Shown here piece after piece: positions 4,118 through 18,151 of a DNA stretch of 23,266 bases. Position numbers and translations under genes: made by a program. Numbering within the stretch: the first letter of the stretch is position 1; each line of letters begins with the position of its first letter. The notes beneath the pieces were generated by a model. The model was not told the origin of the DNA, did not search any database, and was given only the letters and a program-made list of their open reading frames with translations. This DNA is from a virus: the UHGV virus genome UHGV-0108413, one strand, 5' to 3'.

Positions 4118-4216
4118 AATTCACCTCAGAATGGACACGGCCCAAGGAAATAACGCTGATTTAATACTTCGACTCGGGACAAATTAAGGCATACCCGCAT
4201 TCCTTCGCGGTCACCA

Positions 4217-4375
4217 TTATGGCGATACCAGAGAGCTTTCTGCGTGTACATGCGTCTCTGTAACTTGCTCTCCTTCACCGTGGTTGCAAGTGACATGAAT
4301 ATCTCCTTCGTTACCGATTAAATCTTTCATCTGACGAATGAATTCTTCGTCTGACCAGTTATCTGTAAAACTCAT
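4217..4375 (-). CDS. Small hypothetical protein (52 aa)
   Basis: Found by manual translation (below the ORF-track size cutoff). ATG overlaps the stop of the Kil-like gene (ATGA). Confidence 0.4.
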   Translation of the reverse strand: MSFTDNWSDEEFIRQMKDLIGNEGDIHVTCNHGEGEQVTETHVHAESSLVSP

Positions 4376-4524
4376 TTCCTGCGATACCACGGAAGGTTGA
4401 TAGCTGATTTCATCGCTTTATTTGCTTCAAGCCACATTTTTGAATCACCAATAAAGCTGGCTATTACTGCTTTGTTTTGTGCTGCACGAAGCATCTGGTG
4501 ATTGATGGCTATTTCATTGCGCAT
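4372..4524 (-). CDS. Kil-like small protein (50 aa), putative host division inhibitor
   Basis: Manual translation gives MRNEIAINHQMLRAAQNKAVIASFIGDSKMWLEANKAMKSAINLPWYRRK. Sits between cIII and the recombination genes as lambda kil does. GAGGT SD upstream; overlaps the cIII 3' end. Confidence 0.45.
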   Translation of the reverse strand: MRNEIAINHQMLRAAQNKAVIASFIGDSKMWLEANKAMKSAINLPWYRRK

Positions 4525-4640
4525 AATAAGACCTCAACTCTTTTCCATCCGTCACGTAATTTACGGGTGATTCGTTCAAGTAAAGATTCATTTAGTTGGA
4601 AGGCACCCATGCGAGCGCCTCCCGCGATTGCGTAAATCAT
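4509..4640 (-). CDS. cIII: CIII-like protein (FtsH inhibitor that stabilises CII)
   Basis: Manual translation MIYAIAGGARMGAFQLNESLLERITRKLRDGWKRVEVLLCAMK contains the lambda CIII core ESLLERITRKLRDGWKR. AAGGAA SD 6 nt upstream. Confidence 0.7.
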   Translation of the reverse strand: MIYAIAGGARMGAFQLNESLLERITRKLRDGWKRVEVLLCAMK

Positions 4641-4663
4641 GGGTGGTTCCTTATGTTGGTTTA

Positions 4664-5632
4664 TTAGTAGGTTATTTTTGTTGCGAATACTTCGCCTTTT
4701 ACGATGGCTGTTATGATATTTTTAGCAACATCTTCTGATGCGCCAACCTTGATAATGTCAGCAAGTATTTTGTTATTTACTTCTTTCCGGTGAGCTTTAT
4801 CCTTTGCTCTACGCTCTTCTTCGTCCTTGATTCTTTTTTCTTCTGCTATTCTGGCTTGCTCTTTTGCTTCAGCCTCGCGCCGGATTCGTTCAGCCTCCTC
4901 CTGTGCTTTTCGGCGTTCTGCTTCAATTGCCGCCTGCTTTTCTCTTTCAGCTCGTTCTGCTGCCTCTTTTGCTTCGCGCTGTGCTCGTTGCTCGGCTTCA
5001 ATGCGTTCACGCTCTGCACGTTCCGCTGCGGCCTTAGCTTCTGCTTCTCGCCTTGCTGCTGCTTCAATTTCGGCTTTTGCCTTTGCTTCGGCTTCTGCTC
5101 TGGCTTTCTCTTCAGCTTCTCTTTTTAAGCGTTCTTCATGCTCTCGCTTTTCCTGCTCCGCTTTGAGTCTTGCCTCTTCTCTTTGGCGGTCAAATTCGCG
5201 ATCCATCAAAATCGCTATTTCATGGTCAGACTCAATTTGCTTTGCGAGAGCTTCAGCTGCTGCCTTAGCTTCTTCTTCGGCTTTAATCCGTGCCTGTTCC
5301 TCCTCATAATCAGTAAGAGGCTGGCGCGCCTTGGCTTTCAGTTCATCAAGGCGATCGCGCACTGTCTTGCGGTTAGCATCAATTAGCTTTGGAATTTCCT
5401 TCAGTTCAGCAACAAGGTCTTTGCCAAGACCATCGAGATATGTTTTCGTCTGCGCAACTTTATACGCCAGAGAAGCGATCTCCTTTCTGCCCTTTGCCGT
5501 TGTGATATCAGGCACAAAGGACATAACTTCACGTTCAACCTTTTGGAGAATTTCTTCAATCTGGTCGGCAGACTGAAATACAGTCATCGCATTTGCTTTT
5601 TCAATAACAACTAAATCTGTTACTTCACTCAT
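4664..5632 (-). CDS. Hypothetical protein with a long Glu/Arg/Lys/Ala-rich single-helix (ER/K) region
   Basis: Start set at the ATG at 5632 (GGAGG SD); the track ORF begins upstream without an SD. About 170 residues of EAEAKAKAE/RREAEAK-type repeats flanked by globular N- and C-terminal segments. Confidence 0.6.
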   Translation of the reverse strand: MSEVTDLVVIEKANAMTVFQSADQIEEILQKVEREVMSFVPDITTAKGRKEIASLAYKVAQTKTYLDGLGKDLVAELKEIPKLIDANRKTVRDRLDELKAKARQPLTDYEEEQARIKAEEEAKAAAEALAKQIESDHEIAILMDREFDRQREEARLKAEQEKREHEERLKREAEEKARAEAEAKAKAEIEAAARREAEAKAAAERAERERIEAEQRAQREAKEAAERAEREKQAAIEAERRKAQEEAERIRREAEAKEQARIAEEKRIKDEEERRAKDKAHRKEVNNKILADIIKVGASEDVAKNIITAIVKGEVFATKITY

Positions 5633-5644
5633 ATATCCTCCATC

Positions 5645-5671
5645 AAAAAAAATCGCCCTCACACTGGAGGG
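5645..5671 (-). terminator. Putative intrinsic terminator (leftward)
   Basis: On the minus strand, hairpin CCCTC/GAGGG with a 6-nt loop, followed by CGA and a T8 run. Confidence 0.4.
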
Positions 5672-5923
5672 AAAAGAAGATTTCCAATAATCAGAACAAG
5701 TCGGCTCCTGTTTAGTTACGAGCGACATTGCTCACATAGCAGACTCGTAAATCTGCTATAGGCGCTTATTCGCATCGCATGACAACATCAAATTTTTCGA
5801 GATTACTTTGTCGCAACAATCCTTTTTCTACGCGGTCAGCTTTTCTATAATTATCAAATTAGAAATGTTTAATTACTTCTTTCGTTTCTCGCTCTATAAC
5901 TTCAACAATGTATTTCTTATTCA

Positions 5924-6202
5924 TCATTCTTCCCCCAGAGCCTTGCTGATGGCTGCCTTGGCTCGTTTGTATTCGGTTAACTCTCTGCACCCTTCGTCAT
6001 GCTCGTAAATGAAGACAAGCTCTTGCAGTGCTTCAAGCAAATCAGGAGCTGCTGCTATCAGTAGCGCATCCTCCCTTTCATTTCTTGTTGCTGCTTCAAT
6101 GTATGTGTCACCAATCGTCACACCATGGAACGTAGTCATCATCTCGTTGACGTTTCTAACCGTGTACTTCCATTTACCAGGCGTACCCTTAAACTCTTTC
6201 AT
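5924..6202 (-). CDS. Hypothetical phage protein (92 aa)
   Basis: ATG at 6202 with GAGGTG SD 5 nt upstream; the track start at 6208 is GTG without a spaced SD. Confidence 0.5.
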   Translation of the reverse strand: MKEFKGTPGKWKYTVRNVNEMMTTFHGVTIGDTYIEAATRNEREDALLIAAAPDLLEALQELVFIYEHDEGCRELTEYKRAKAAISKALGEE

Positions 6203-6221
6203 ATCCACCTCTGTTGTTTAT

Positions 6222-6250
6222 GCCAAAAATAAAGGCCGACTATGCGGCCT
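6222..6250 (-). terminator. Putative intrinsic terminator after the membrane ORF (leftward)
   Basis: On the minus strand, 6-bp GC stem AGGCCG/CGGCCT with a 6-nt loop, followed by TTATTTTT. Confidence 0.45.
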
Positions 6251-6254
6251 GAAA

Positions 6255-6566
6255 TTACTTAACCAATGATGCCGCATATTCAATTAGGAATAACTTAGGT
6301 GCAAGCCAAATCTTCAACCATTCGAAATTGAAGGCAATAATTAAAACACCCATAATTGAGCCAAATATAGGAACAAATACAGTGCATATATCGTAATAAA
6401 CCGAAGATATAAAATGTTCATCATTTGGACGTCCATCGAAAGACGTCCATCTCTCGCCATTATTTCTTGCCGTTCTTGCAAAACTAGGAAGTTTAATTGC
6501 TGCAATTAAAAGCAACAATCCAGCCACTTGGAAAAGTGCGCTATGGACAAAACTCCATATTAGCAA
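6255..6566 (-). CDS. Putative small membrane protein; AT-rich; no ATG/GTG start (TTG at 6566, or an N-terminally decayed gene)
   Basis: Frame is open from 6680 to 6255 with no in-frame ATG or GTG until near the C-terminus. Two or three hydrophobic helices (LLLLIAAIKL, VFVPIFGSIMGVLIIAF). AT-rich codons. Own downstream terminator. Confidence 0.35.
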   Translation of the reverse strand: MLIWSFVHSALFQVAGLLLLIAAIKLPSFARTARNNGERWTSFDGRPNDEHFISSVYYDICTVFVPIFGSIMGVLIIAFNFEWLKIWLAPKLFLIEYAASLVK

Positions 6567-6685
6567 CTGATGAACAACATCAGGAATCTGTGCCTGGCTA
6601 AATGAAACAGCCGCGTCTATTCCATTGCTGGCTTTTTGCAGTAGTTCTACGAGAATCTTGTTTGCTTGTTCTTCTACATCTCACC

Positions 6686-7021
6686 TCAAATAAGTGGTTT
6701 GCTGCCTAATTTCATTTTTTGGCGACCAACACAAGTCACCCCCATTTCACTGCGTGGCTTGCGGTAGTAAATACGGTTCTGTTTACGCTCGACTTCTTCT
6801 GCCTTCTTGCAGCGAAGGCTTCCGAGTGATGCTGCTTTTTCAGAAAGGCTTAAACGCTTTCTTGGGGCTTCCTGAACAGGTTCCTCACTGTCTGTGCCGA
6901 AGATCGAATCGATGATGTTGCATATAGCATCACGCTCGATAGCCAGCTTTCTGCGCCGCTCATGACGGCGAGTTTTGGCATTTCCTGCAAATGTTGATTT
7001 CCCGTACACGATTACCGTCAT
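6686..7021 (-). CDS. N: Antitermination protein N (P22-type arginine-rich motif, lambda-type C-terminus)
   Basis: ATG at 7021 with GAGGA SD 7 nt upstream. N-terminus MTVIVYGKSTFAGNAKTRRHERRRKLAIERD; C-terminus YYRKPRSEMGVTCVGRQKMKLGSKPLI matches the lambda N tail. Confidence 0.8.
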   Translation of the reverse strand: MTVIVYGKSTFAGNAKTRRHERRRKLAIERDAICNIIDSIFGTDSEEPVQEAPRKRLSLSEKAASLGSLRCKKAEEVERKQNRIYYRKPRSEMGVTCVGRQKMKLGSKPLI

Positions 7022-7140
7022 GATGTTTTCCTCATGTGAAATGGCTTTGGTGGTGATGCGCCAGATGCTGATCTTCTGGTTGCTGTCGTTGCAGCTGCAA
7101 TTCACATCACCGCCAAACCCATCTCGTTTGGTATCTGTTT

Positions 7141-7175
7141 GCGCTTTGTCAGCGCCCCATCGAAGTTAAAGAGCC
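7141..7175 (-). promoter_or_regulatory. nutL: boxA-like GCTCTTTAA and boxB hairpin GCGCTGACAAAGCGC
   Basis: Read on the minus strand between pL and N. boxB is a 5-bp stem with a GACAA loop. Confidence 0.65.
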
Positions 7176-7213
7176 TGCCAATCTGTTCCGTTTGGCGTCC
7201 TGCTGATGGCTAA

Positions 7214-7242
7214 ATAGTACGATGTGTACTTTATTGAGTCAA
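7214..7242 (-). promoter_or_regulatory. pL-like promoter with overlapping operator palindromes
   Basis: Minus strand: -35 TTGACT (7242..7237), 17-bp spacer, -10 TACTAT (7219..7214). Overlapped by palindromes TATTGAGTCAATA (7232..7244) and AGTACGATGTGTACT (7216..7230). Confidence 0.5.
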
Positions 7243-7304
7243 TACAAAATGTTCTAAATGCGGTTAGTTTTTTATAACACTTTGTATTTTATTGATTTAT
7301 ATTT

Positions 7305-7337
7305 TGGAAAAAGAAAACCCGACGCTAAGGTCGGGTT
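7305..7337 (-). terminator. Intrinsic terminator downstream of cI
   Basis: On the minus strand, 8-bp stem AACCCGAC/GTCGGGTT with a 6-nt loop, followed by TTCTTTTT; about 30 nt past the cI stop. Confidence 0.5.
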
Positions 7338-7367
7338 ATTGTTGTGTGTTTTAGAGTGGTGAGGCTG

Positions 7368-8027
7368 TTAACTAAATGTCTCTTCAGGCCACTGGCTGGC
7401 GATAACTTTCCCTACTACGGAACAGCTATCATTGCATGGGATCATTGGATATTGCGGGTTTAGTGGTTGTAGGAACACCTGACCGCTATCCCTGATCAGT
7501 TTCTTGAAGGTAAACTCGTCACCACCAAGTCTGGCTATGCAGAAATCACCTGGCTCAACAGCCTGCTCAGGGTCAACGAGAATTAACATCCCGTCAGGAA
7601 AGCTTGGCTTGGATCCTGTTGGTGCGGTCATGGAATTACCTTCAACTTCAAGCCAAAACGCACAATCACTGGCTTTTTTGGTTGTGCTGACCCATCTCTC
7701 CGCATCGCCTTTGGTAAAGGTTCTAAGCTCAGGCGAGAACATCCCGGCCTGAACATGAGAAAAAACAGGGTACTCATATTGTTTTTTAACGGGGGCAGAT
7801 GAGTATTCGCCAACAGGTGAAAATGTACCGTCGTGGTTGAATGAGACGTTATCAATACCAAGGTATTTAAACACCACACCAATCTCGTCAAGAGATGGAT
7901 GACGAGATCCGCGCAACCAGTGACCAATTCCACCCTGCGTCATACCAAGCTCTTCAGCTAACTTCTCTTGAGTTATGCCGAGCTCTTTCATTCTGGATCT
8001 AGCCAGTTCATACCATTTCATTTTCAT
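7368..8027 (-). CDS. cI: CI-like repressor (XRE HTH plus S24/LexA-like autocleavage domain)
   Basis: [29 protein letters not shown]; putative Ala-Gly cleavage site in HVQAGMF; GNSM serine and KKL lysine of S24 peptidases. Start uncertain: ATG 8027, ATG 8021 (better SD spacing) or ATG 8102 (longest ORF, no SD). Confidence 0.85.
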
Positions 8028-8036
8028 ACCCTTATT

Positions 8037-8112
8037 ATTACGCTCTGTACTAAAACCATCCATGCACAAGATGTATTTTTTGTTTGCATTCCAAAAGTAC
8101 ATATCGTATTAT
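8037..8112. promoter_or_regulatory. OR/pR/pRM region with operator-like sites
   Basis: pR: -35 TTGCAT (8084..8089), 17-bp spacer, -10 TATTAT (8107..8112). Operator-like 15-mers AGTACATATCGTATT (8096..8110) and ATTACGCTCTGTACT (8037..8051). Confidence 0.5.
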
Positions 8113-8138
8113 TGTTTCATGGTTACTATGGAGGGCAT

Positions 8139-8354
8139 ATGAGCAACCTACGAAAATATCGAGAGTCACTGAATATCTCTCAAACAACACTTGCTAAGGC
8201 GGTTGGATGCACACAGGGAGCTATCGGACATTGGGAATCTGGTCGTCGCTTCCCAGACCTTAAAACATGCCGTGCTCTTGTTGCGTGCCTAAACAAGTTA
8301 GGCGCAAAAGTCAGTCTTGATGACGTGTTCCCACCGGAACACAAAGCCGCTTAA
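8139..8354 (+). CDS. cro: Cro-like HTH regulator (71 aa)
   Basis: ATG at 8139 with GGAGGG SD. HTH ISQTTLAKAVGCTQGAIGHWE. Divergent from cI across the operator region. Confidence 0.8.
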   Translation: MSNLRKYRESLNISQTTLAKAVGCTQGAIGHWESGRRFPDLKTCRALVACLNKLGAKVSLDDVFPPEHKAA

Positions 8355-8364
8355 TAAGCGGATC

Positions 8365-8399
8365 CGCTCTTTATCAATCTGCACCGCCGACAACGCGGT
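8365..8399 (+). promoter_or_regulatory. nutR: boxA-like CGCTCTTTA and boxB-like hairpin with GACAA loop
   Basis: boxA at 8365..8373 just after the cro stop. ACCGC-CGACAAC-GCGGT hairpin at 8383..8399. Confidence 0.6.
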
Positions 8400-8463
8400 A
8401 ACTAATTAATCACTCATCGAAAGATGAGTATTAGTGATTATTTACCTATGGAAATAGTAAGAA

Positions 8464-8760
8464 ATGGAACAAACAAGTTACAGCAAACTATCACAGCGCG
8501 ACGTTGATCGCGCTGAAACAGATTTACTCATCAACCTGTCAACGCTTACACAGCGCGGTCTGGCAAAGATGATTGGCTGTCATGAATCGAAGATAAGCAG
8601 AACGGACTGGAGATTTATTGCTTCGGTCTTGTGTGCTTTCGGAATGGCATCAGACATCAGTCCGATTAGCAGGGCTTTTAAGTATGCGCTTGATGGAATC
8701 ACAAAGAAAAAATCCCCGGTGGCCGCCGGGGACTCTAAGCAAATTGATATGCAATTCTGA
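8464..8760 (+). CDS. cII: CII-like transcriptional activator
   Basis: 98 aa; position after cro/nutR. C-terminus KKKSPVAAGDSKQIDMQF resembles the lambda CII C-terminus. Confidence 0.8.
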   Translation: MEQTSYSKLSQRDVDRAETDLLINLSTLTQRGLAKMIGCHESKISRTDWRFIASVLCAFGMASDISPISRAFKYALDGITKKKSPVAAGDSKQIDMQF

Positions 8761-8792
8761 GGGAATTACTGGATCAATCCACAGGAGTCATT

Positions 8793-9638
8793 ATGACAAA
8801 TACAGCAAAAATACTCAACTTCGGCAGAGGTAACTTTGCCGAACAGGAGCTAAGAGTGGCTGATATCGATGATGGTTACACCAGATTCGCTAACGAGCTG
8901 CTGGAAGCTATCGCAAGTGCCGATTTAACCGCTCGCCAGTTGAAAGTTATGCTGGCCTACGTCCGGAAAACATATGGATTCAATAAGAAAACAGATCGAA
9001 TAGCCGATGAGCAAATTGCTCAGTTAACAGGACTGTCAAGGCAGAATGTTAACAAGGCTAAAAAAGAACTGATTTCAATGAATTGCCTGTTTATGGATGG
9101 AAATAAAATCGGTGTAAACAGGGAGGTATCTGCGTGGCAATTCAGCAAGTGTCTCCAAGTTAGCAACTTTGTCTCGAAGTTAGAGACAAAAAATGTCTCC
9201 AAATTAGAGACACTCAATGTCTCGAAGTTAGAGACACACAAAAGACATTCTTTAAAGACAAAAGAAAATATTAATAAACCCCCTATATCCCCCAAAAAAA
9301 TTTCTCAGAAGTTCGACCCGCTAGAAACAGAGTTGCCTGATTGGTTATCGGCAGAAACATGGTTGTCGTGGGTTACCTATCGCAAGGAGATAGGTAAGTC
9401 GATCAAGTCTAAGCAAAGCGTCACTCAGGCTATCAACGTTCTAAGCAGAAGTCTGGAGAAGGGATATACACCTGAAGAAATTATAAACCAGAGCATCGCC
9501 AGTGGTTGGCAGGGGATTTTTGAACCCAAGACTCCAAAGGGGAAATCTCAACCGAGGCCGCAGCAGCGAGCTATGCAGGAAAACTTTGCCGCCAAAGATT
9601 ACGGGCAAACTGAAATGCCTTCATGGGCGCAGGAGTGA
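8793..9638 (+). CDS. O: Replication initiator O-like protein
   Basis: AGGAG SD upstream. The gene contains the ori iterons, which encode repeated NVSKLET segments, and an adjacent AT-rich tract, as in lambda O. Confidence 0.85.
   Translation: MTNTAKILNFGRGNFAEQELRVADIDDGYTRFANELLEAIASADLTARQLKVMLAYVRKTYGFNKKTDRIADEQIAQLTGLSRQNVNKAKKELISMNCLFMDGNKIGVNREVSAWQFSKCLQVSNFVSKLETKNVSKLETLNVSKLETHKRHSLKTKENINKPPISPKKISQKFDPLETELPDWLSAETWLSWVTYRKEIGKSIKSKQSVTQAINVLSRSLEKGYTPEEIINQSIASGWQGIFEPKTPKGKSQPRPQQRAMQENFAAKDYGQTEMPSWAQE
9151..9237. repeat. ori iterons: four ~19-bp repeats (GTCTCnAAnTTAGAGACAC) inside O, followed by an AT-rich tract to about 9300
   Basis: Iterons at 9151..9167, 9171..9188, 9195..9213 and 9219..9237. 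Each has inverted GTCTC/GAGAC ends. Confidence 0.7.
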
Positions 9639-9640
9639 AC

Positions 9641-10486
9641 ATGACGCTGGATGAAAAGATCTCCCAACTGGAGAAAAAACTTGCAGAATTGAGTTCTCCG
9701 CCAATTGCTATCGAGCATACAGCTGTAGAAATTGGCACTGGCATCTGTGAAAAACATGGTGAGTTTGAGCAGCGTAACCGTTACTCGACTGGGCCAATTA
9801 AGTTTGCCTCAAGACCTAGCGAATGCCCGGAATGCATGAGAGATGAGCTTATTCGGCTACAGGCAGAGAAGATTAAAATCGACGAAGAATCACGTAAGCG
9901 CAATGTCGAGTTTCTGTTGAATAATCTTGATATTCCTGAACGATTCAAGGGTTGCACACTACAGAACTACGAGCCAGTCAACGACGATGCAAAGAGAGTG
10001 CTCAGGGTGTGTCAGGCATACGCCAGCAAATGGCCTGAGAGGTTACAGAAAGGCGGTGGGCTGGTTATGTGCGGAAAGCCTGGTACTGGAAAGAATCATC
10101 TTGCACTGGCTATCGCCCGGCACGCAATTACGGAACATCAAAGCTCAGCTATTTTCACAACGGCGCTGAAAATTGCCAGAGAATATAAATCAACATGGTC
10201 TAAAAACTCCACCCGCACAGAGGATGAAGTGATCCGACAGTTCACTAAACCTGACCTGCTAATTATCGATGAGGTTGGTGTGCAGTTTGGAAGCGAGGCG
10301 GAAAAGATGATCATGTTCGAAATCATCAACACCCGCTACGAGTGCATGAAGCCAACAATCCTGATTAGCAACCAGAGCAAAGATGAACTGTCTGCATTCA
10401 TTGGTGAGCGTGTTATTGACAGGATGAATGATGGCGGCGGGTGCACTCTTGCGTTTACATGGGATAGTTACAGGAGCAGATCGTGA
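9641..10486 (+). CDS. DnaC/IstB-like AAA+ helicase loader (in the position of lambda P)
   Basis: Walker A GKPGTGKNHLA and Walker B LLIIDEVG. ATG at 9641 with AGGAG SD, 3 nt after the O stop. Confidence 0.8.
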   Translation: MTLDEKISQLEKKLAELSSPPIAIEHTAVEIGTGICEKHGEFEQRNRYSTGPIKFASRPSECPECMRDELIRLQAEKIKIDEESRKRNVEFLLNNLDIPERFKGCTLQNYEPVNDDAKRVLRVCQAYASKWPERLQKGGGLVMCGKPGTGKNHLALAIARHAITEHQSSAIFTTALKIAREYKSTWSKNSTRTEDEVIRQFTKPDLLIIDEVGVQFGSEAEKMIMFEIINTRYECMKPTILISNQSKDELSAFIGERVIDRMNDGGGCTLAFTWDSYRSRS

Positions 10487-10773
10487 CTGGAAAAGAAATC
10501 ATCCTGGAATATCTGAAAACTCATGAACAATTCTCCCCACATGAATTAGCACTGATCACCGGAATACCAAATAACAGAATCGCTCAAGCAGCAAGGCATA
10601 TGGTGAAACAAGGGAATTTGAGTGTTGTTGAGCGTAAGTGGAAGACGGTTATTTATGCAAAACGCAAAGTGAAGAAGGAGCCAATTAAAAGAAATCCAGA
10701 TGGTACGGGGTGGGGATGTGCAAATCCAATGACGGCGTTTATTAATAGGGCGCTTATGGAGGTAAGGCAATGA
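10483..10773 (+). CDS. Hypothetical protein (96 aa), possibly winged-helix
   Basis: GTG start overlapping the stop of the loader gene; AGGAG SD 5 nt upstream. Confidence 0.5.
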   Translation: MTGKEIILEYLKTHEQFSPHELALITGIPNNRIAQAARHMVKQGNLSVVERKWKTVIYAKRKVKKEPIKRNPDGTGWGCANPMTAFINRALMEVRQ

Positions 10774-10798
10774 CCATCTACATCACTGAGCTAATAAC

Positions 10799-10827
10799 AG
10801 GCCTGCTGGTAATCGCAGGCCTTTTTA
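10799..10827 (+). terminator. tR2-like intrinsic terminator before the nin region
   Basis: 8-bp stem AGGCCTGC/GCAGGCCT with an 8-nt loop, followed by TTTTT. Confidence 0.6.
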
Positions 10828-10846
10828 TTTGGGGGAGAGGGAAGTC

Positions 10847-11287
10847 ATGAAAAAACTAACCTTTGAAATTCGATCTCCAGCACATCAGCAAAACGCTATT
10901 CACGCGGTACAGCAAATTCTTCCAGACCCAACCAAACCAATCGTAGTAACCATTCAGGAACGCAACCGCAGCTTAGACCAAAATCGGAAGCTTTGGGCTT
11001 GCCTTGGTGACGTCTCTCGTCAGGTTGAATGGCATGGTCGCTGGCTGGATGCAGAAAGCTGGAAGTGTGTGTTTACCGCAGCATTAAAGCAGCAGGACGT
11101 TGTTCCTAACCTTGCCGGGAATGGCTTTGTGGTAATAGGCCAGTCAACCAGCAGGATGCGTGTAAGCGAATTTGCGGAGCTATTAGAGCTTATACAGGCA
11201 TTCGGTACAGAGCGTGGCGTTAAGTGGTCAGACGAAGCGCGACTGGCTCTCGAATGGAAAGCGCGATGGGGAGATCGGGCTGCATGA
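10847..11287 (+). CDS. ninB: NinB (Orf-family recombination mediator)
   Basis: 146 aa, MKKLTFEIRSPAHQQNAIHAVQQILPDPTKPIVVTIQERNRSLDQNRKLWA, recognisably lambda NinB. ATG at 10847 with GAGGGAAG SD. Confidence 0.85.
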   Translation: MKKLTFEIRSPAHQQNAIHAVQQILPDPTKPIVVTIQERNRSLDQNRKLWACLGDVSRQVEWHGRWLDAESWKCVFTAALKQQDVVPNLAGNGFVVIGQSTSRMRVSEFAELLELIQAFGTERGVKWSDEARLALEWKARWGDRAA

Positions 11288-11811
11288 CTATCAAATCAAA
11301 TACGCCAGCACACGACAAGGACTGCTGGCAAACGCCGCTTTGGCTTTTTGATGCACTGGATATTGAGTTTGGATTCTGGCTGGATTCGGCAGCGAGCGAC
11401 AAAAATGCTCTGTGTGCTCACTGGCTAACTGAGGCCGACGACGCGCTCAATTCTGAGTGGGTAAGCCACGGTGCAATCTGGAATAACCCACCGTACAGCA
11501 ATATCAGGCCGTGGGTGGAAAAAGCTGCTGAGCAGTGCATACAACAGCGACAGACGGTAGTTATGCTTGTGCCAGAGGATATGTCAGTCGGATGGTTCAG
11601 CAAGGCTCTGGAGAGTGTCGACGAAGTTCGCATTATCACTGATGGACGGATTAATTTTATCGAACCATCGACAGGGCTGGAGAAGAAGGGAAACAGCAAA
11701 GGCTCCATGCTGCTGATTTGGCGACCGTTCATCAGTCCTCGACGGATGTTTACTACCGTATCCAAAGCGGCATTGATGGCGATCGGGCAGGGTGTCAGGA
11801 GGGCGGCATGA
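11284..11811 (+). CDS. Phage Dam-like DNA N6-adenine methyltransferase
   Basis: NPPY catalytic motif ([10 protein letters not shown]). Start ATG overlaps the ninB stop and its stop overlaps the ninE start (ATGA coupling). Confidence 0.75.
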
Positions 11812-11984
11812 GGCGACAGCGACGAAGTATCACCGACATCATCTGCGAAAACTGCAAATACCTTCCAACGAAACGCTCCAGAAATAAACGCAAGCCAATC
11901 CCAAAAGAATCTGACGTAAAAACCTTCAACTACACGGCTCACCTGTGGGATATCCGGTGGCTAAGACATCGTGCGAGGAAATGA
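11808..11984 (+). CDS. ninE: NinE-like protein
   Basis: 58 aa, [58 protein letters not shown]. Confidence 0.7.
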
Positions 11985-11986
11985 CA

Positions 11987-12385
11987 ATGGATTATTCACA
12001 GTTAAGTGATTTTGAAATTAACGTGGCGGTATTCGAATCCATTCATAACGGATCACCGGATTACAAAGAAGGTGAGAATGGCGATATGGTGTTTGTCTCA
12101 TTTGAGGGAGACATTGTAAACGGAGACGCAGTTGAAGTAGAAGTTGAGCGCGGATCCTTTAACCCATGCGTAAACCCAGCAGACGCATGGCCGATTATCA
12201 CTGAAAACAAAATTAGCACCATGTGGATGACAGCGGAAAAAGAATGGTGCGCATGGTCAGGAGGTGATTTAGAGGAAGGTTGTTGGGAATGGGAAAATAT
12301 TCCTGACTACTGCTTCTGCGGTGAATCGCCTCTCCGCGCAGCCATGATTGTATTTCTCATGATGCAGGACGCCAATAATGCTTAG
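11987..12385 (+). CDS. Hypothetical acidic protein
   Basis: ATG at 11987 with GAGGA SD 7 nt upstream; an ATG at 11981 overlapping the ninE stop is an alternative. Confidence 0.5.
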   Translation: MDYSQLSDFEINVAVFESIHNGSPDYKEGENGDMVFVSFEGDIVNGDAVEVEVERGSFNPCVNPADAWPIITENKISTMWMTAEKEWCAWSGGDLEEGCWEWENIPDYCFCGESPLRAAMIVFLMMQDANNA

Positions 12386-12554
12386 CCCATCCCAATCCCT
12401 TCAATACCAGAAAGAAAGCGTCGAGCGAGCTTTAACGTGCGCTAACTGCGGTCAGAAGCTGCATGTGCTGGAAGTTCACATGTGTGAGCACTGCTGCGCA
12501 GAACTGATGAGCGATCCGAATAGCTCAATGTACGAGGAAGAAGACGATGAATGA
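12378..12554 (+). CDS. ninF: NinF-like small Cys-rich protein
   Basis: Manual translation MLSPSQSLQYQKESVERALTCANCGQKLHVLEVHMCEHCCAELMSDPNSSMYEEEDDE, with CxxC and CxxCC motifs. Confidence 0.6.
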   Translation: MLSPSQSLQYQKESVERALTCANCGQKLHVLEVHMCEHCCAELMSDPNSSMYEEEDDE

Positions 12555-13269
12555 GTTAATAAATGGCAATGCCATCAAAATGACAAGCATTGAAATCGCT
12601 GAGTTGGTGGGTAAGCGTCATGACAATGTGAAACGTACCATCGAAACGCTGGCTAAAAATGGTGTTATCCGGCTTCCTCAAATTGAGGTTTCCGAAAGAA
12701 TCAATAACTTAGGGTTCAATGTTCAGTACGAGCATTACGTCTTCGAGGGCGAACAAGGTAAGCGAGACAGTATTGTCGTTGTAGCCCAGTTGTCGCCGGA
12801 ATTCACGGCTCGCCTTGTTGACCGTTGGCGAGAGCTTGAAGAAGCTGCGGTTAATATCCCAAAAACGCTACCAGAAGCGTTGCGCCTTGCTGCTGACCTT
12901 GCTGAGCAGAAAATGCAACTGGAAAACCAGCTCGCAATTGCCGCACCTAAAGTTGAGTTTGCCGATCGCGTTGGCGAGGCCAGCGGAATTTTGATTGGAA
13001 ACTTTGCAAAGGTTGTTGGAATTGGTCCAAACAAACTGTTTGCGTGGATGCGCGATCACAAAATCCTTATTGCTTCAGGTTCCCGGCGCAATGTGCCAAT
13101 GCAGGAATATATGGATCGCGGCTATTTCACAGTGAAAGAAACAGCGTTCAACACAAATCACGGAATACAGATATCGTTCACCACAAAAATCACCGGGCGT
13201 GGTCAACAGTGGCTGACCAGAAGGCTGCTCTATAGCGGAATGCTGAAAGTAACAGGGGAGGCTGCTTAA
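12547..13269 (+). CDS. Rha-family regulatory protein / antirepressor (Rha N-terminal domain, KilAC/Ant-like C-terminal domain)
   Basis: N-terminus MTSIEIAELVGKRHDNVKRTIETL is typical of the Rha domain; C-terminal region FAKVVGIGPNKLFAWMRDHKIL is typical of antirepressor C-terminal domains. Confidence 0.7.
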   Translation: MNELINGNAIKMTSIEIAELVGKRHDNVKRTIETLAKNGVIRLPQIEVSERINNLGFNVQYEHYVFEGEQGKRDSIVVVAQLSPEFTARLVDRWRELEEAAVNIPKTLPEALRLAADLAEQKMQLENQLAIAAPKVEFADRVGEASGILIGNFAKVVGIGPNKLFAWMRDHKILIASGSRRNVPMQEYMDRGYFTVKETAFNTNHGIQISFTTKITGRGQQWLTRRLLYSGMLKVTGEAA

Positions 13270-13559
13270 TGGCTAAACTACGCAAAGAAGCGCGCGGCAG
13301 AGAATGCCAGGTACGTATTTACGGCGTATGCAATGGCAACCCTGAAACTACAGTTCTGGCACATTACCGGATGGCTGGAATTTGCGGAACGGGAATGAAG
13401 CCTGACGACCTGATCGGAGCATGGGCTTGTAGCGCGTGTCACGATGAAATCGACCGACGCACCCATAAACTCGACAACAAAGACGCCAGACTTTACCACC
13501 TGGAAGGCGTGATCAGGACGCAGGCGATACTGCTGAAGGAGGGGAAGATTAAGCCATGA
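13269..13559 (+). CDS. YbcO-like protein (DUF1364, putative nuclease)
   Basis: MAKLRKEARGRECQVRIYGVCNGNPETTVLAH and a Cys/His cluster. Lies between the nin genes and rusA, as ybcO does in DLP12. Confidence 0.6.
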   Translation: MAKLRKEARGRECQVRIYGVCNGNPETTVLAHYRMAGICGTGMKPDDLIGAWACSACHDEIDRRTHKLDNKDARLYHLEGVIRTQAILLKEGKIKP

Positions 13560-13918
13560 ACGAATATCAGTTTGTGCTTCCATACCCGCCGTCGGTGAAC
13601 ACCTACTGGCGAAGACGGGGAAGCCAATACTACATCAGCGATAAAGGCCAGAAATACCGAAAAGACGTTCAGCAAATCATCCGCCAACTTAAGTTAGACA
13701 TTTTCACCAAATCACGACTCCGCATCAAAGTCATCGCAGACGTTCCAGACTCCCGCCGCCGCGACCTCGACAACATCCTGAAAGGTTTACTCGACTCCCT
13801 TATCCACGCCGGATTTGCGGAAGACGACGAGCAATTCGATGACATTCGCGTAATTCGTGGTGTGAAAGTACCAGGCGGACGGCTTGGAATAAAAATCACC
13901 GAACTGGAGAACGCATGA
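13556..13918 (+). CDS. rusA: RusA Holliday-junction resolvase
   Basis: 120 aa with the acidic catalytic region DSRRRDLDNILKGLLDSL. ATGA-coupled to the upstream gene. Confidence 0.85.
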   Translation: MNEYQFVLPYPPSVNTYWRRRGSQYYISDKGQKYRKDVQQIIRQLKLDIFTKSRLRIKVIADVPDSRRRDLDNILKGLLDSLIHAGFAEDDEQFDDIRVIRGVKVPGGRLGIKITELENA

Positions 13919-14103
13919 ACGCCACAATTCAAACGATACCAGAGCTTCTTATCCAGACACGAGGCAATCAGACCGAAGTGGCGAGGATGCTTTCCTGTGC
14001 AAGAGGAACAGTGCTCAAGTACAACCGAGACAGCAAAGGCGAGCGTCACGTAATAGTTAACGGCGTCCTGATGGTCAAACAAGGCAAGAGGGGAAGACGA
14101 TGA
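13915..14103 (+). CDS. ninH: NinH-like protein
   Basis: 62 aa. TIPELLIQTRGNQTEVARMLSCARGTVLKY resembles lambda NinH. ATGA-coupled to rusA and Q. Confidence 0.65.
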   Translation: MNATIQTIPELLIQTRGNQTEVARMLSCARGTVLKYNRDSKGERHVIVNGVLMVKQGKRGRR

Positions 14104-14723
14104 GACTCGAAAGCGTAGCTAAATTTCATTCGCCAAAAAGCCCGATGATGAGCGACTCACCACGGGCTACGGCTTCTGACTCTCTTTCCGGTACTGATGT
14201 GATGGCTGCTATGGGGATGGCGCAATCACAAGCCGGATTCGGAATGGCTGCATTCTGTGGTAAGCACGAACTCAGCCAGAACGACAAACAAAAGGCTATC
14301 AACTATCTGATGCAATTTGCACACAAGGTATCGGGGAAATACCGTGGCGTGGCAAAGCTTGAAGGAAATACTAAGGCAAAGGTACTGCAAGTGCTCGCAA
14401 CATTCGCTTATGCGGATTATTGCCGTAGTGCCGCGACGCCGGGCGCAAGATGCAGAGATTGCCACGGTACAGGCCGTGCGGTTGATATAGCCAAAACGGA
14501 GCAGTGGGGGAGAGTTGTTGAGAAAGAGTGCGGAAGATGCAAAGGTGTCGGCTATTCAAGAATGCCAGCAAGCGCCGCATATCGCGCTGTAACGATGCTA
14601 ATCCCAAACCTTACTCAACCCACCTGGTCACGCACTGTTAAGCCGCTGTATGACGCTCTGGTGGTGCAATGCCACAAAGAAGAGTCAATTGCAGACAACA
14701 TTTTGAATGCGGTCACACGTTAG
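14100..14723 (+). CDS. Q: Late antiterminator Q (lambda type)
   Basis: 207 aa. Zn-binding CRDCHGTGR...CGRCKG region. Position immediately upstream of PR'. Confidence 0.9.
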   Translation: MRLESVAKFHSPKSPMMSDSPRATASDSLSGTDVMAAMGMAQSQAGFGMAAFCGKHELSQNDKQKAINYLMQFAHKVSGKYRGVAKLEGNTKAKVLQVLATFAYADYCRSAATPGARCRDCHGTGRAVDIAKTEQWGRVVEKECGRCKGVGYSRMPASAAYRAVTMLIPNLTQPTWSRTVKPLYDALVVQCHKEESIADNILNAVTR

Positions 14724-14765
14724 CGGCATGATTGCCACGGATGGCAACATATTAACGACATGATA

Positions 14766-14801
14766 TTGACTTTTTGAATAAAGTTGGGTAAATTTGACTC
14801 A
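14766..14801 (+). promoter_or_regulatory. Late promoter PR' with qut
   Basis: -35 TTGACT (14766..14771), 17-bp spacer, -10 TAAATT (14789..14794), then TGACTCAACGATGG as in lambda PR'/qut. Confidence 0.7.
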
Positions 14802-14829
14802 ACGATGGATAAATGCACTCGTTAAATAA

Positions 14830-14858
14830 AGCCCTGAGTTAATAGCTCGGGGCTTTTT
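14830..14858 (+). terminator. tR'-like intrinsic terminator about 58 nt after the PR' start
   Basis: 9-bp stem AGCCCTGAG/CTCGGGGCT (one G-U pair) with a 7-nt loop, followed by TTTT. Confidence 0.6.
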
Positions 14859-14864
14859 GCGTTT

Positions 14865-14880
14865 GCACAACAGGTAAGAG
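14865..14880 (+). repeat. 16-bp direct repeat GCACAACAGGTAAGAG, copy 1
   Basis: Exact copy of 15423..15438, 558 bp away; the two copies bracket an ORF-free block. Confidence 0.5.
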
Positions 14881-15422
14881 CATTCTCCCTTATGGGGCTT
14901 GGCTTAAATGCACCGAGTGCTCTTATCGTTGTGGCAGCACAACGATAGTTTTCGTCAGAGTTGGCGACTTTGCGGGTTTTTAGAAACTGACCACAAAGAT
15001 AAATGCAAACGATGATTTGATGTTGATGGCGGCCTAAGAAACCAAAGTCACGGGGTCTTCCGATTCCCCGCTACCAAATTCGGCGCAGTGGCCCGCTGTG
15101 ATTAATAATGGGCACCCAATAATGAGAGCGTTGGACAGTGGCGATGAGATTTCGCAACCCAGGAGCCAATAGATCGGGGATAGTGCGCATAATACCGATT
15201 GAGGTGAGTGCTGGAATAAGCATCGGGAGTCATGACCCAACATGATGCGGGAAAGCCAGCCACCGAGAGACCCGGCAGGGTAAACCGGCCTTCCGCTTGG
15301 TTATCAAGCAATAATAGCGCTCTCATTCGTGGGTAACAACGGGCATGTCGCCTTAGTAAATCCCTCAAGGGTGCGACGCATAGACCGGTACTAGCGTCGC
15401 CGTTAGCTCCACGAAACGGAGC

Positions 15423-15438
15423 GCACAACAGGTAAGAG
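15423..15438 (+). repeat. 16-bp direct repeat GCACAACAGGTAAGAG, copy 2
   Basis: Exact copy of 14865..14880. Confidence 0.5.
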
Positions 15439-15812
15439 TATTTGTAGAGTTCGACTCTCTACCGTGGGATTTTTTCCGCGATGCGAGCCATAAATGCTCT
15501 TTCCGTTGTGCTGAATTAAGCGAATGCCGGAAGCAGAACCGGATCACCAAATGCGTACAGGCGTCATCGCCGCCCAGCAACAGCACAACCCAAACTTAGC
15601 CGTAGCCACTGGCTATCCTGAACTCATCAGTGATAGTTATGCTGCGGCCTTCTACGCATGACCTTCGTGAAAGCGGGTGGCAAGAGGCTGCGCTAACAAC
15701 CTCCTGCCGTTTTGCCCGTGCATATCGGTCACGAACAAATCTGATTACTAAACACAGTAGCCTGGATTTGTTCTATCAGTAATCGACCTTATTCCTAATT
15801 AAATAGAGCAAA

Positions 15813-15828
15813 TCCCCTTATTGGGGGT
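15813..15828 (+). promoter_or_regulatory. sdi-like stem-loop upstream of the S dual start
   Basis: CCCC-TTATT-GGGG hairpin 5 nt before ATGAAGATG. Confidence 0.4.
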
Positions 15829-15833
15829 AAGAC

Positions 15834-16157
15834 ATGAAGATGCCAGAAAAACATGACCTGTTAGCCGCCATTCTCGCGGCAAAGGAACAAGGCATCGGGG
15901 CAATCCTTGCGTTTGCAATGGCGTACCTTCGCGGCAGATATAATGGCGGTGCGTTTACAAAAACAGTAATCGACGCAACGATGTGCGCCATTATCGCCTG
16001 GTTCATTCGTGACCTTCTCGACTTAGCCGGACTAAGTAGCAATCTCGCTTATATAACGAGCGTGTTCATCGGCTACATCGGTACTGACTCGATTGGTTCG
16101 CTTATCAAACGCTTCGCTGCTAAAAAAGCCGGAGTAGAAGATGGTGGAAATCAATAA
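15834..16157 (+). CDS. S: Holin S (class I, dual-start Met1-Lys2-Met3)
   Basis: 107 aa [34 protein letters not shown] with three transmembrane segments; near-identical to lambda S. Confidence 0.9.
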
Positions 16158-16617
16158 TCAACGTAAGGCGTTCCTCGATATGCTGGCGTGGTCAGAGGGA
16201 ACTGATAACGGACGACAGAAAACCAGAAATCATGGTTATGACGTCATTGTAGGTGGAGAGCTATTCACTGATTACTCCGATCACCCTCGTAAACTTGTCA
16301 CGCTAAACCCAAAACTCAAATCAACAGCAGCCGGTCGCTATCAGCTTCTTTCCCGTTGGTGGGATTCCTATCGTAAGCAGCTTGGCCTGAAAGACTTCTC
16401 TCCGAAAAGCCAAGACGCTGTGGCATTGCAGCAGATTAAAGAGCGTGGCGCTTTACCGATGATTGATCGCGGTGATATCCGTCAGGCTATCGATCGTTGC
16501 AGCAATATCTGGGCTTCACTGCCGGGCGCTGGTTATGGTCAGTTCGAGCATAAGGCTGACAACCTGATTGCAAAATTCAAAGAAGCTGGCGGAACGGTCA
16601 GAGAGATTGAGGTATGA
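16141..16617 (+). CDS. R: Endolysin R (lytic transglycosylase)
   Basis: 158 aa [24 protein letters not shown]; near-identical to lambda R. Start overlaps the S 3' end. Confidence 0.9.
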
Positions 16618-17051
16618 GCAGAGTCACCGCGATTATTTCCGCTCTGGTTATCTGCATCATCGTCTGTCTGTCATGGGCTGTTAATCATTACCGTGATAAC
16701 GCCATCGCCTACAAAGACCAGCGCGATAAAGCCACGTACATCATCGCTGACATGCAGAAGCGTCAACGTGATGTGGCTGAACTCGATGCCAGATATACAA
16801 AGGAACTTGCTGATGCTAACGCGACTATCGAAAGTCTCCGTGCTGATGTTTCTGCTGGGCGTAAGCGCCTGCAAGTCGCCGCCACCTGTGCAAAGTCAAC
16901 GACCGGAGCCAGCAGCATGGGCGATGGAGAAAGCCCAAGACTTACAGCAGATGCTGAACTCAATTATTACCGTCTCCGAAGTGGGATCGACAGGATAACC
17001 GCGCAGGTTAACTACCTGCAGGAGTACATCAGGACGCAATGCCTTCGATGA
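16614..17051 (+). CDS. Rz: Spanin inner-membrane subunit Rz (i-spanin)
   Basis: N-terminal transmembrane segment [26 protein letters not shown] followed by coiled-coil; ATGA-coupled to R. Confidence 0.85.
16813..16998 (+). CDS. Rz1: Spanin outer-membrane lipoprotein Rz1 (o-spanin), embedded in the +1 frame of Rz
   Basis: [20 protein letters not shown] lipobox, then a Pro-rich mature region ([16 protein letters not shown]), entirely within Rz. Confidence 0.7.
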
Positions 17052-17226
17052 TAGCGATAATTTTACTCATCATCCTTCACATCTGGCTCTGTAGACAGGG
17101 TGGTGATCACTTCTGGAGTGAATCCAGATTAAACATCTCATTGCTGATGCTTGATATTGAGCATCTGGCGCGCGGTAAGGGGCTGCGTTGAGATAAGAGC
17201 CAGTTCATTACAAATACCAGGATTTA

Positions 17227-17249
17227 GCCTCGCATTCGCGGGGCTTTTT
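17227..17249 (+). terminator. Putative intrinsic terminator downstream of Rz
   Basis: 7-bp stem GCCTCGC/GCGGGGC (one G-U pair) with a 4-nt loop, followed by TTTTT. Confidence 0.5.
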
Positions 17250-17393
17250 ATATCTGAATTTCACAGCGCATCTCACGCGCATATTAACGAGAGCCTTTCA
17301 GTAAGCGAGCCTGAGAAATGCCGTTATAGGTGGCGACCTCTCTCGGGCGGCTTTTCTGTGAGACAGGCTCACTTTCTAAAAGGTAAAGACGCT

Positions 17394-17891
17394 ATGAAAG
17401 CAATCACGCTTTTTAATACACCGATCCGTGTTGATGAATCAGGAATGATCTGCCTCACTGATATGTGGAAAGCCAGTGGTAAAAGTGAATCTGAATCGCC
17501 TTACCACTACCTGCGAAACAAGCAGACCAAAGAGTTCTTAGCCGAGCTGGAGAAAAACCACGAATCTGTGGTTTTTACTGAGCGCGGTGTACACGGTGGA
17601 ACATATGGCGGGAAGTTTGTTGCTTACGATTATGCGGCTTGGTTAAACCCCGGGTTCAAGTACGCGGCCTATAAAGTCCTCGATGACTACTTCACCGGAG
17701 AACTTCAGCATCGCAACAGCTTAAGTGCGCAGCTCAACATGAAATGTCATGAGTTTGACCAGAAGAAAGACATGGCGAGCTTCTGCGGACAAGGGCTGGC
17801 AGCATGGCGCTATACGAAGCCAGTGTTGGTCGCTGAGATTAACTCCCTGGCTAACCAGCTGCAGATTACGATCCCCGGGCTTCCGGGATGA
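17394..17891 (+). CDS. KilA-N domain protein
   Basis: Start at the internal ATG 17394 (AAAGG SD). N-terminus MKAITLFNTPIRVDESGMICLTDMWKASGK is typical of the KilA-N/APSES-like DNA-binding domain. Confidence 0.65.
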   Translation: MKAITLFNTPIRVDESGMICLTDMWKASGKSESESPYHYLRNKQTKEFLAELEKNHESVVFTERGVHGGTYGGKFVAYDYAAWLNPGFKYAAYKVLDDYFTGELQHRNSLSAQLNMKCHEFDQKKDMASFCGQGLAAWRYTKPVLVAEINSLANQLQITIPGLPG

Positions 17892-18151
17892 GTGATCGTG
17901 TTATTGAATGCGCCTCCAGAGCGGGGCGCGACTTCTCAGAGTTCATGAAAGGCGAGAAGGGCATGATGGAAGCATTGGCCTCGGTGGATGAGTTTGGCGA
18001 GCAGCTGCGCCTCAACGGCTGTGTCAATCATCACTTTGTTAGCTACATGATGCGGAACTCGATCATGCAGGCATTCATGGACATGGCAAAAGCCGAGAGG
18101 AAAGAAGAGCGCCGGCGTAAGCTAGCGGAAGCAAAAGCAAAAGTGAAGTAG
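17888..18151 (+). CDS. Hypothetical protein (87 aa) with a basic coiled C-terminus
   Basis: ATGA-coupled to the KilA-N gene. Confidence 0.5.
   Translation: MSDRVIECASRAGRDFSEFMKGEKGMMEALASVDEFGEQLRLNGCVNHHFVSYMMRNSIMQAFMDMAKAERKEERRRKLAEAKAKVK

Follow-up and report, generated by a model that had tools for sequence, protein, structure and literature searches.

Introduction

The closest described relatives of the locus treated here are gene 34 of Shigella phage Sf6 (NP_958210), a 423-nt coding sequence (CDS) of 140 codons, and ECRS218_0047 of CUS-3, which is also annotated as a 423-nt CDS. The copy analysed in this paper lies on the minus strand of the virus genome UHGV-0108413, and the whole stretch of DNA that was analysed, 23,266 nucleotides in length, is called the window hereafter. 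The DNA of Sf6 gene 34 is about 98% identical to the window copy (97.7%, query 115-591) and that of the CUS-3 gene is about 95% identical to the window frame. The three copies are alike in their N- and C-terminal motifs, in two transmembrane (TM) helices, in their place in the pL operon and in the terminator sequence downstream. However, the Sf6 and CUS-3 copies begin with ATG and are placed after ral and the ral terminator, whereas the window copy has GTA at this position, follows the antiterminator gene N at a distance of 8 nt and has no ral. Searches of the literature on the protein family concerned, phrog_3054, and on Sf6 gp34 gave nothing relevant, and a paper on the experimental evolution of Sf6 was rejected as a source on gene 34, since it concerns nin-region deletions.

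Another system to be compared is SieB of lambda and P22 (Pfam PF14163), also a small membrane protein whose gene is situated near N and ral in the early-left region. P22 sieB yields an in-frame truncated product, Esc, as well. Unlike the genes described above, however, SieB has no sequence or profile similarity to the gene 34 family, and lambda sieB is on the strand opposite to N.

Furthermore, systems of translation initiation bear on this locus. According to Meydan et al. (bioRxiv 10.1101/520783), ribosomes can bind to start-stops, that is, start codons followed at once by a stop codon, and nearby translation can be slightly attenuated by them. AUGUG sites at a Shine-Dalgarno spacing of 12/14 are ambiguous, and initiation there favours AUG over the 3' GUG by a factor of 3.5 in vitro to about 10 in vivo (Kohl et al. 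2022, PMC9841429). Termination-reinitiation at overlapping start-stops is documented for AUGUGA and GUGUGA, the acceptor codon being GUG or AUG. In reporter data on all 64 codons, AUG, GUG and UUG initiate at 10-100% of AUG, AUA, AUC, AUU and CUG at up to about 3%, and the remaining 57 codons, among which GUA must fall though it goes unnamed in the text, at 0.01-1% (bioRxiv 10.1101/063800). The window has in common with the start-stops of Meydan et al. and the AUGUG sites of Kohl et al. a Shine-Dalgarno sequence and an AUG, together with the immediate stop of the former and the 12/14 spacing, at which AUG wins, of the latter. It differs from them in that its start-stop is the by-product of one mutation, occurs in a single lineage and is unconserved, and in that the 3' codon, GUA, is a non-start codon. 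In the reading preferred here, the window copy is most likely a very recent, translationally silenced start-loss allele, namely an incipient pseudogene, and not a case of exotic initiation.

The Reading Frame and Its Surroundings

A first-pass annotation of the window had described a minus-strand frame without ATG or GTG start which was supposed to encode a membrane protein. The frame is open as described there, from TGA 6683..6681 to TAA 6257..6255, and from the position at which the family starts it comprises 140 codons plus TAA (6677..6255). Its AT-richness relative to the neighbours is also borne out, the GC content being 38.1% as against 47.9% in N, 47.0% in the next open reading frame (ORF) and 48.5% in the window.

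Upstream of the frame, N is encoded on the minus strand at 7021..6686 (PF25694 N_peptide, E 1.1e-25), and its TGA stop (6688..6686), 8 nt upstream of GTA 6677..6675, overlaps the Shine-Dalgarno sequence GAGGTGA. Further upstream are a pL-like promoter (7242..7214) and the repressor gene cI (8102..7368); between the end of cI (7368) and this promoter, a bidirectional terminator-like hairpin (AACCCGAC...GTCGGGTT) with a T-run on the minus strand is found at 7316..7337. Downstream, the frame is followed by its terminator and, directly 3' of this, by a minus-strand ORF of 92 aa belonging to phrog_1273 (6202..5924) with a Shine-Dalgarno sequence of its own; other genes are found at the same place (5924..6202) in relatives. 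Then come a coiled-coil ORF of phrog_1376, which extends to 4664, cIII (4640..4509, PF02061) and kil (4524..4372, PF06301). The location between N and cIII given by the first-pass annotation is thus right. Rfam and tRNA scans of the window gave no matches, and a crude consensus scan gave no sigma-70-like promoter upstream of the gene on the coding strand, either in the window or in Sf6. Of the marks of a moron, an accessory gene which a prophage expresses independently, namely an upstream promoter of its own, a downstream terminator and a deviant base composition, the terminator and the low GC content are seen here, as against the negative result of this crude promoter scan.

The terminator assigned to the frame is an intrinsic-terminator-like hairpin plus T-run on the minus strand at 6250..6223 (AGGCCG-CATAGT-CGGCCT at 6250..6233, then TTATTTTT; -9.7 kcal/mol), and it is conserved with the gene: the same sequence follows the 140-, 149- and 121-aa variants, and a distant homologue has another terminator at this position. 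In the window, the hairpin is the terminator that comes first downstream of N, a position that corresponds to tL1 of lambda, so that without N antitermination the pL transcript would comprise N and the gene 34 homologue. The segment which comprises the stop codon, the terminator and the sequence up to '...GGCATAAACAACAGA' (6257 to 6205 on the minus strand; window 6205..6257) is shared almost without change by phages with different downstream genes and, judging from these comparisons, behaves as a mosaic boundary. A 'bsq4 boundary sequence' is annotated in the Sf6 record adjoining this stop-terminator segment.

A Catalogued but Unstudied Gene Family

The protein and profile searches which the first-pass annotation had proposed as a check gave a clear result. 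The translation from 6677 matches the PHROG profile phrog_3054 with an E value of 8.5e-52, residues 1-140 being aligned with positions 1-137 of 137, and a protein search gave 480 homologous clusters at E<=1e-3, nearly all of 120-150 aa, from enterobacterial prophages of Escherichia, Citrobacter, Klebsiella, Enterobacter, Salmonella and Cronobacter. The matches include Stx-converting phages, and all 480 clusters are named 'hypothetical' and are without a Pfam domain. Identity to the 140-aa proteins of E. coli and E. albertii (P0001-P0021) is 93-99%. Compared with distant homologues, dN/dS is 0.07-0.19 with saturated dS, the N- and C-terminal blocks being the most constrained. The frame is, to judge by these matches, a genuine member of an accessory gene family found in lambdoid and P22-like phages, which is conserved and already catalogued, though unstudied. 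The window copy belongs to phrog_3054 by descent, but it is probably not an expressed member.

As to position, the gene directly follows N in 15 relatives and ral in 25, and the window copy is likewise situated in the early-left operon, directly after N and with a terminator downstream. Damaged copies, with lesions that arose independently, are found elsewhere in the family, amounting to about 8% of those sampled. L130/L131 have a nonsense change, GAA>TAA, at codon 12; in L015/L097 the frame is cut short by a stop at codon 100, ahead of the C-terminal motif; L038 (= L134), L078, L088 and L141 are frameshifted; and in L021 the start has changed, ATG>ACG. This pattern of lesions fits a dispensable accessory gene that would often be lost in prophages.

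Architecture and Possible Function of the Protein

Hydrophobic helices are found at about residues 41-63 and 96-118 (Kyte-Doolittle windows), and amphipathic helices are predicted at both termini. The earlier description of a membrane protein with an amphipathic N-terminus is thereby confirmed, with two hydrophobic helices and with an amphipathic C-terminal helix in addition. The AF2 model is a helical hairpin (pLDDT 74), and positive charges flank the loop as well as the termini.

In alignment A1 (relatives L115-L194), the N-terminal about 45 and the C-terminal about 22 residues are nearly invariant. The conserved N-terminal block is xEQANKILVELLQKASNGIDAAVSFSQAQIPDVVHQLL and the C-terminal block is WLKIWLAPKLxLIEYAASLVK, and in the window copy every invariant column of A1 is retained except M1. 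The core consisting of TM1, loop and TM2 is hypervariable in sequence and in length (intact members are of 120-150 aa), and its dN/dS among close variants reaches 0.6-2.6, on few substitutions. The 149-, 140- and 121-aa forms have an identical 30-mer after the start, and the ends are conserved at the DNA level in E. coli phages; this conservation across the three forms suggests that the core is swapped like a cassette by recombination between conserved flanks. In L072 and L109, an ORF of 81 aa joins the N-terminal coding 30-mer to a C-terminus which is unrelated and highly acidic; it looks like a recombinant that used the conserved 5' end.

No significant family emerged from scans of Pfam, NCBIfam and PADLOC, and the sole Pfam match, DUF1031 at E 0.03, is below the cut-off. 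PADLOC-DB gave 0 families at E<=0.1, a PDB sequence search gave 0 matches, and with the AF2 model as query Foldseek gave nothing at E<=0.001 in either BFVD or PDB. A relationship with SieB was rejected, since there is no match to Pfam SieB at E<=1 and the hhalign probability between A1 and lambda SieB is 0.25%. The N-cIII location stands, but the link with superinfection exclusion that the first-pass annotation had drawn from it is not supported by these comparisons. The intact protein might have an early-expressed accessory function in the inner membrane, for example preventing other phages from entering or modulating a protein of the host membrane, but confidence in this is low, and the guess is drawn solely from the location, the membrane nature and the hypervariable core.

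Loss of the Start Codon

The alignment of homologues which had been suggested in order to see whether an ATG was lost shows just this. Among 111 copies that carry the 30-mer following the start, the start codon is ATG in 107, GTG in 1, ACG in 1 and GTA in 2, and among 73 copies gathered by protein similarity it is ATG in 72, GTG in 0, ACG in 0 and GTA in 1. A canonical start (ATG, rarely GTG) is therefore what relatives have at the aligned first codon, and it is absent in the window copy, in which the mutated start codon GTA stands at 6677..6675 on the minus strand. The two GTA carriers of the 111-copy set are the window and the IMG/VR contig 3300029828_000288 (L075). This contig is 99.993% identical to window 4182..18151 with one mismatch; at window position 16775, in the lysis-gene region, the window has G and the contig has A, the only difference over 13,970 bases. 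None of 5,426 complete E. coli genomes has the exact GTA junction, the best match among them, with one mismatch, being E. coli 3CM, and the junction is also absent from JGI metagenome contigs.

The gene starts as ...AAGGTGATAT ATG GAA GAA CAA... in Sf6 and CUS-3, as TTTGAGGTGAGAT GTG GAA GAA in E. coli 3CM and as TTTGAGGTGAGAT GTA GAA GAA in the window. The 3CM prophage gene (ACXYXH_RS16815, WP_167814875), for which PGAP calls the GTG start, has a junction from N to the Shine-Dalgarno sequence identical to that of the window; it differs in having a canonical GTG within an AUGUG motif and in 15 positions of the CDS. The path of mutation would be ATG > GTG > GTA, an order taken from alleles that are extant in mosaic genomes. 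With 15 differing sites in its CDS, 3CM itself is not the direct ancestor.

Among intact copies that share the N junction, the nearest (L120) matches the window at 503 of 509 positions between the end of N and a point past the terminator, and the six differences consist of the -3 base (T>G), two bases of the start codon and three CDS bases. Another intact copy (L118) differs from the window at two CDS positions. With merely two or three base differences other than those at the start, the loss of the start must be very recent, and consequently the lack of further lesions needs no special explanation. For the same reason there is no power for detecting relaxed selection: the frame has no second lesion, and a still-functional gene would look alike. 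Of the alternatives "decaying pseudogene or unusual initiation" in the first-pass annotation, the pseudogene is essentially upheld, with the qualification that the decay is minimal and recent, and initiation at the TTG, which is discussed below, finds no support.

The Ribosome-Binding Site and the ATG-TAG Start-Stop

Two features had been missed in the first-pass annotation, GTA 6677..6675 at the start position of the homologues and ATG-TAG at 6679..6674 behind a strong Shine-Dalgarno sequence at 6687..6681. The latter, GAGGTGA on the minus strand, is intact (anti-SD duplex -6.9 kcal/mol) and is conserved as A/GGGTGA in relatives, and the RNA around the initiation region is unstructured (z +1.6). 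GAGGTGA is followed after 1 nt by ATG TAG (6687..6674), which is the sequence of a start-stop; it is out of frame with the gene and in the reading frame of N. When GAGG is aligned with the canonical UAAGGAGG, the ATG has an aligned spacing of 12, and GTA or GTG has one of 14. The G>A change from GTG to GTA at the same time converts the overlapping ATG TGG, as present in 3CM, into ATG TAG. The start-stop is found only in the window and its twin contig, and it is absent from the other copies compared.

The E. coli 3CM prophage (L003, 1615..1630) has the AUGUG motif at a Shine-Dalgarno spacing of 12/14, for which initiation in both of the overlapping frames has been reported. The GTG annotated as the start in 3CM probably competes with the out-of-frame ATG, which opens an ORF of 10 codons, and by analogy with such sites expression of the protein is probably already reduced in the 3CM allele.

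In the window copy, the sole canonical start served by the intact Shine-Dalgarno sequence is the out-of-frame ATG, which is followed by TAG at once. Ribosomes would load there, form a start-stop complex and be released, and the membrane protein would be made in trace amounts at most. The frame would then remain open only because the time has been too short for further lesions. A fusion of N with the gene 34 product by readthrough or frameshift was considered and rejected: as the ATG-TAG is in the N frame, a ribosome reading through the N stop would meet this TAG three codons further on, TGA 6683..6681 closes the gene 34 frame, and no slippery sequence is evident.

Other Explanations

The best surviving alternative, although an unlikely one, is that the gene is leaky but functional, that is, a low level of protein is made by initiation at GUA or by reinitiation after AUG-UAG, and the series ATG > GTG > GTA represents adaptive down-tuning of a potentially toxic membrane protein. 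The fully kept Shine-Dalgarno sequence and unstructured initiation region, the absence of any other lesion in the frame and the existence of the intermediate GTG/AUGUG allele agree with this, and many non-canonical codons do initiate detectably, at 0.01-3% of AUG; termination-reinitiation is also known at AUGUGA and GUGUGA overlaps. However, GUA is neither canonical nor near-cognate, and the documented reinitiation needs GUG or AUG as the acceptor. In addition, the GTA allele occurs in one phage lineage among about 180 copies and is missing from the 5,426 E. coli genomes, and the nonsense and frameshift decay of other copies shows that loss of the gene is tolerated. That AUGUAG itself is a tuning device, with the Shine-Dalgarno sequence parking ribosomes and with rare GUA reinitiation or non-canonical initiation giving a trace of a dose-sensitive protein, is decidedly improbable; if true, it would provide a naturally occurring case in which initiation on a non-start codon is coupled to a start-stop.

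It is very improbable that an N-terminally truncated protein, comparable to Esc of P22, is made from TTG 6566 (103 aa) or from GTG 6527. The TTG at codon 38 (6566..6564, minus strand) is indeed, as had been stated, the first canonical start-type codon in frame, and a protein starting there would retain both TM helices. The accompanying statement that no ATG or GTG occurs until about 35 codons from the end was mistaken, since an in-frame GTG is present at codon 51 (6527..6525, minus strand); ATG first occurs in frame at codon 109 (6353). Neither the TTG (+0.3 kcal/mol) nor the GTG (+1.3 kcal/mol), which moreover lies inside TM1, has a Shine-Dalgarno sequence. Codon 38 is TTG in 24 of 32 distinct relatives and TTA, CTA, CTT or CTG, other codons for the same Leu38, in the remaining 8, so that a conserved internal start, by which the first-pass annotation would have recognised a normal gene, was rejected. 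Furthermore, the truncated protein would lack 37 nearly invariant N-terminal residues that are under purifying selection, no record of the 103-aa product is found in public assemblies, and the family is unrelated to SieB. TTG 6566 is probably not used as a start.

Just as little probability is given to a sequencing or assembly artefact, in which the true codon at 6677..6675 would be GTG or ATG. GTA is one base away from the GTG allele, and it is seen in two assemblies only, possibly from the same or related samples. These are, however, separate assemblies that differ from each other at 16775, the site is no homopolymer, and the window ORFs examined (N, cI, cIII, kil, Rad52-like and SSB) are intact. 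Finally, a chance origin of the open frame in AT-rich DNA, which the first-pass annotation had also envisaged, has the low GC content and nothing else in its favour and practically no probability, as it is refuted by the saturated dS with low dN indicative of purifying selection, the full-length family match and the hundreds of homologues of the same length.

Significance

For the locus itself, the significance of the start-loss allele is little: the puzzling ORF without a start is a catalogued gene just after the loss of its start codon. Gene callers would miss such a frame or mis-call it as the 103-aa TTG product. The allelic series ATG, AUGUG and AUGUAG at one ribosome-binding site constitutes a natural set of constructs for start-codon competition and start-stop behaviour. 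In addition, the family is very common in prophages of E. coli, Shigella, Salmonella, Citrobacter and Klebsiella, and an intact member such as Sf6 gp34, with its invariant termini around a hypervariable TM core, may deserve experiments.
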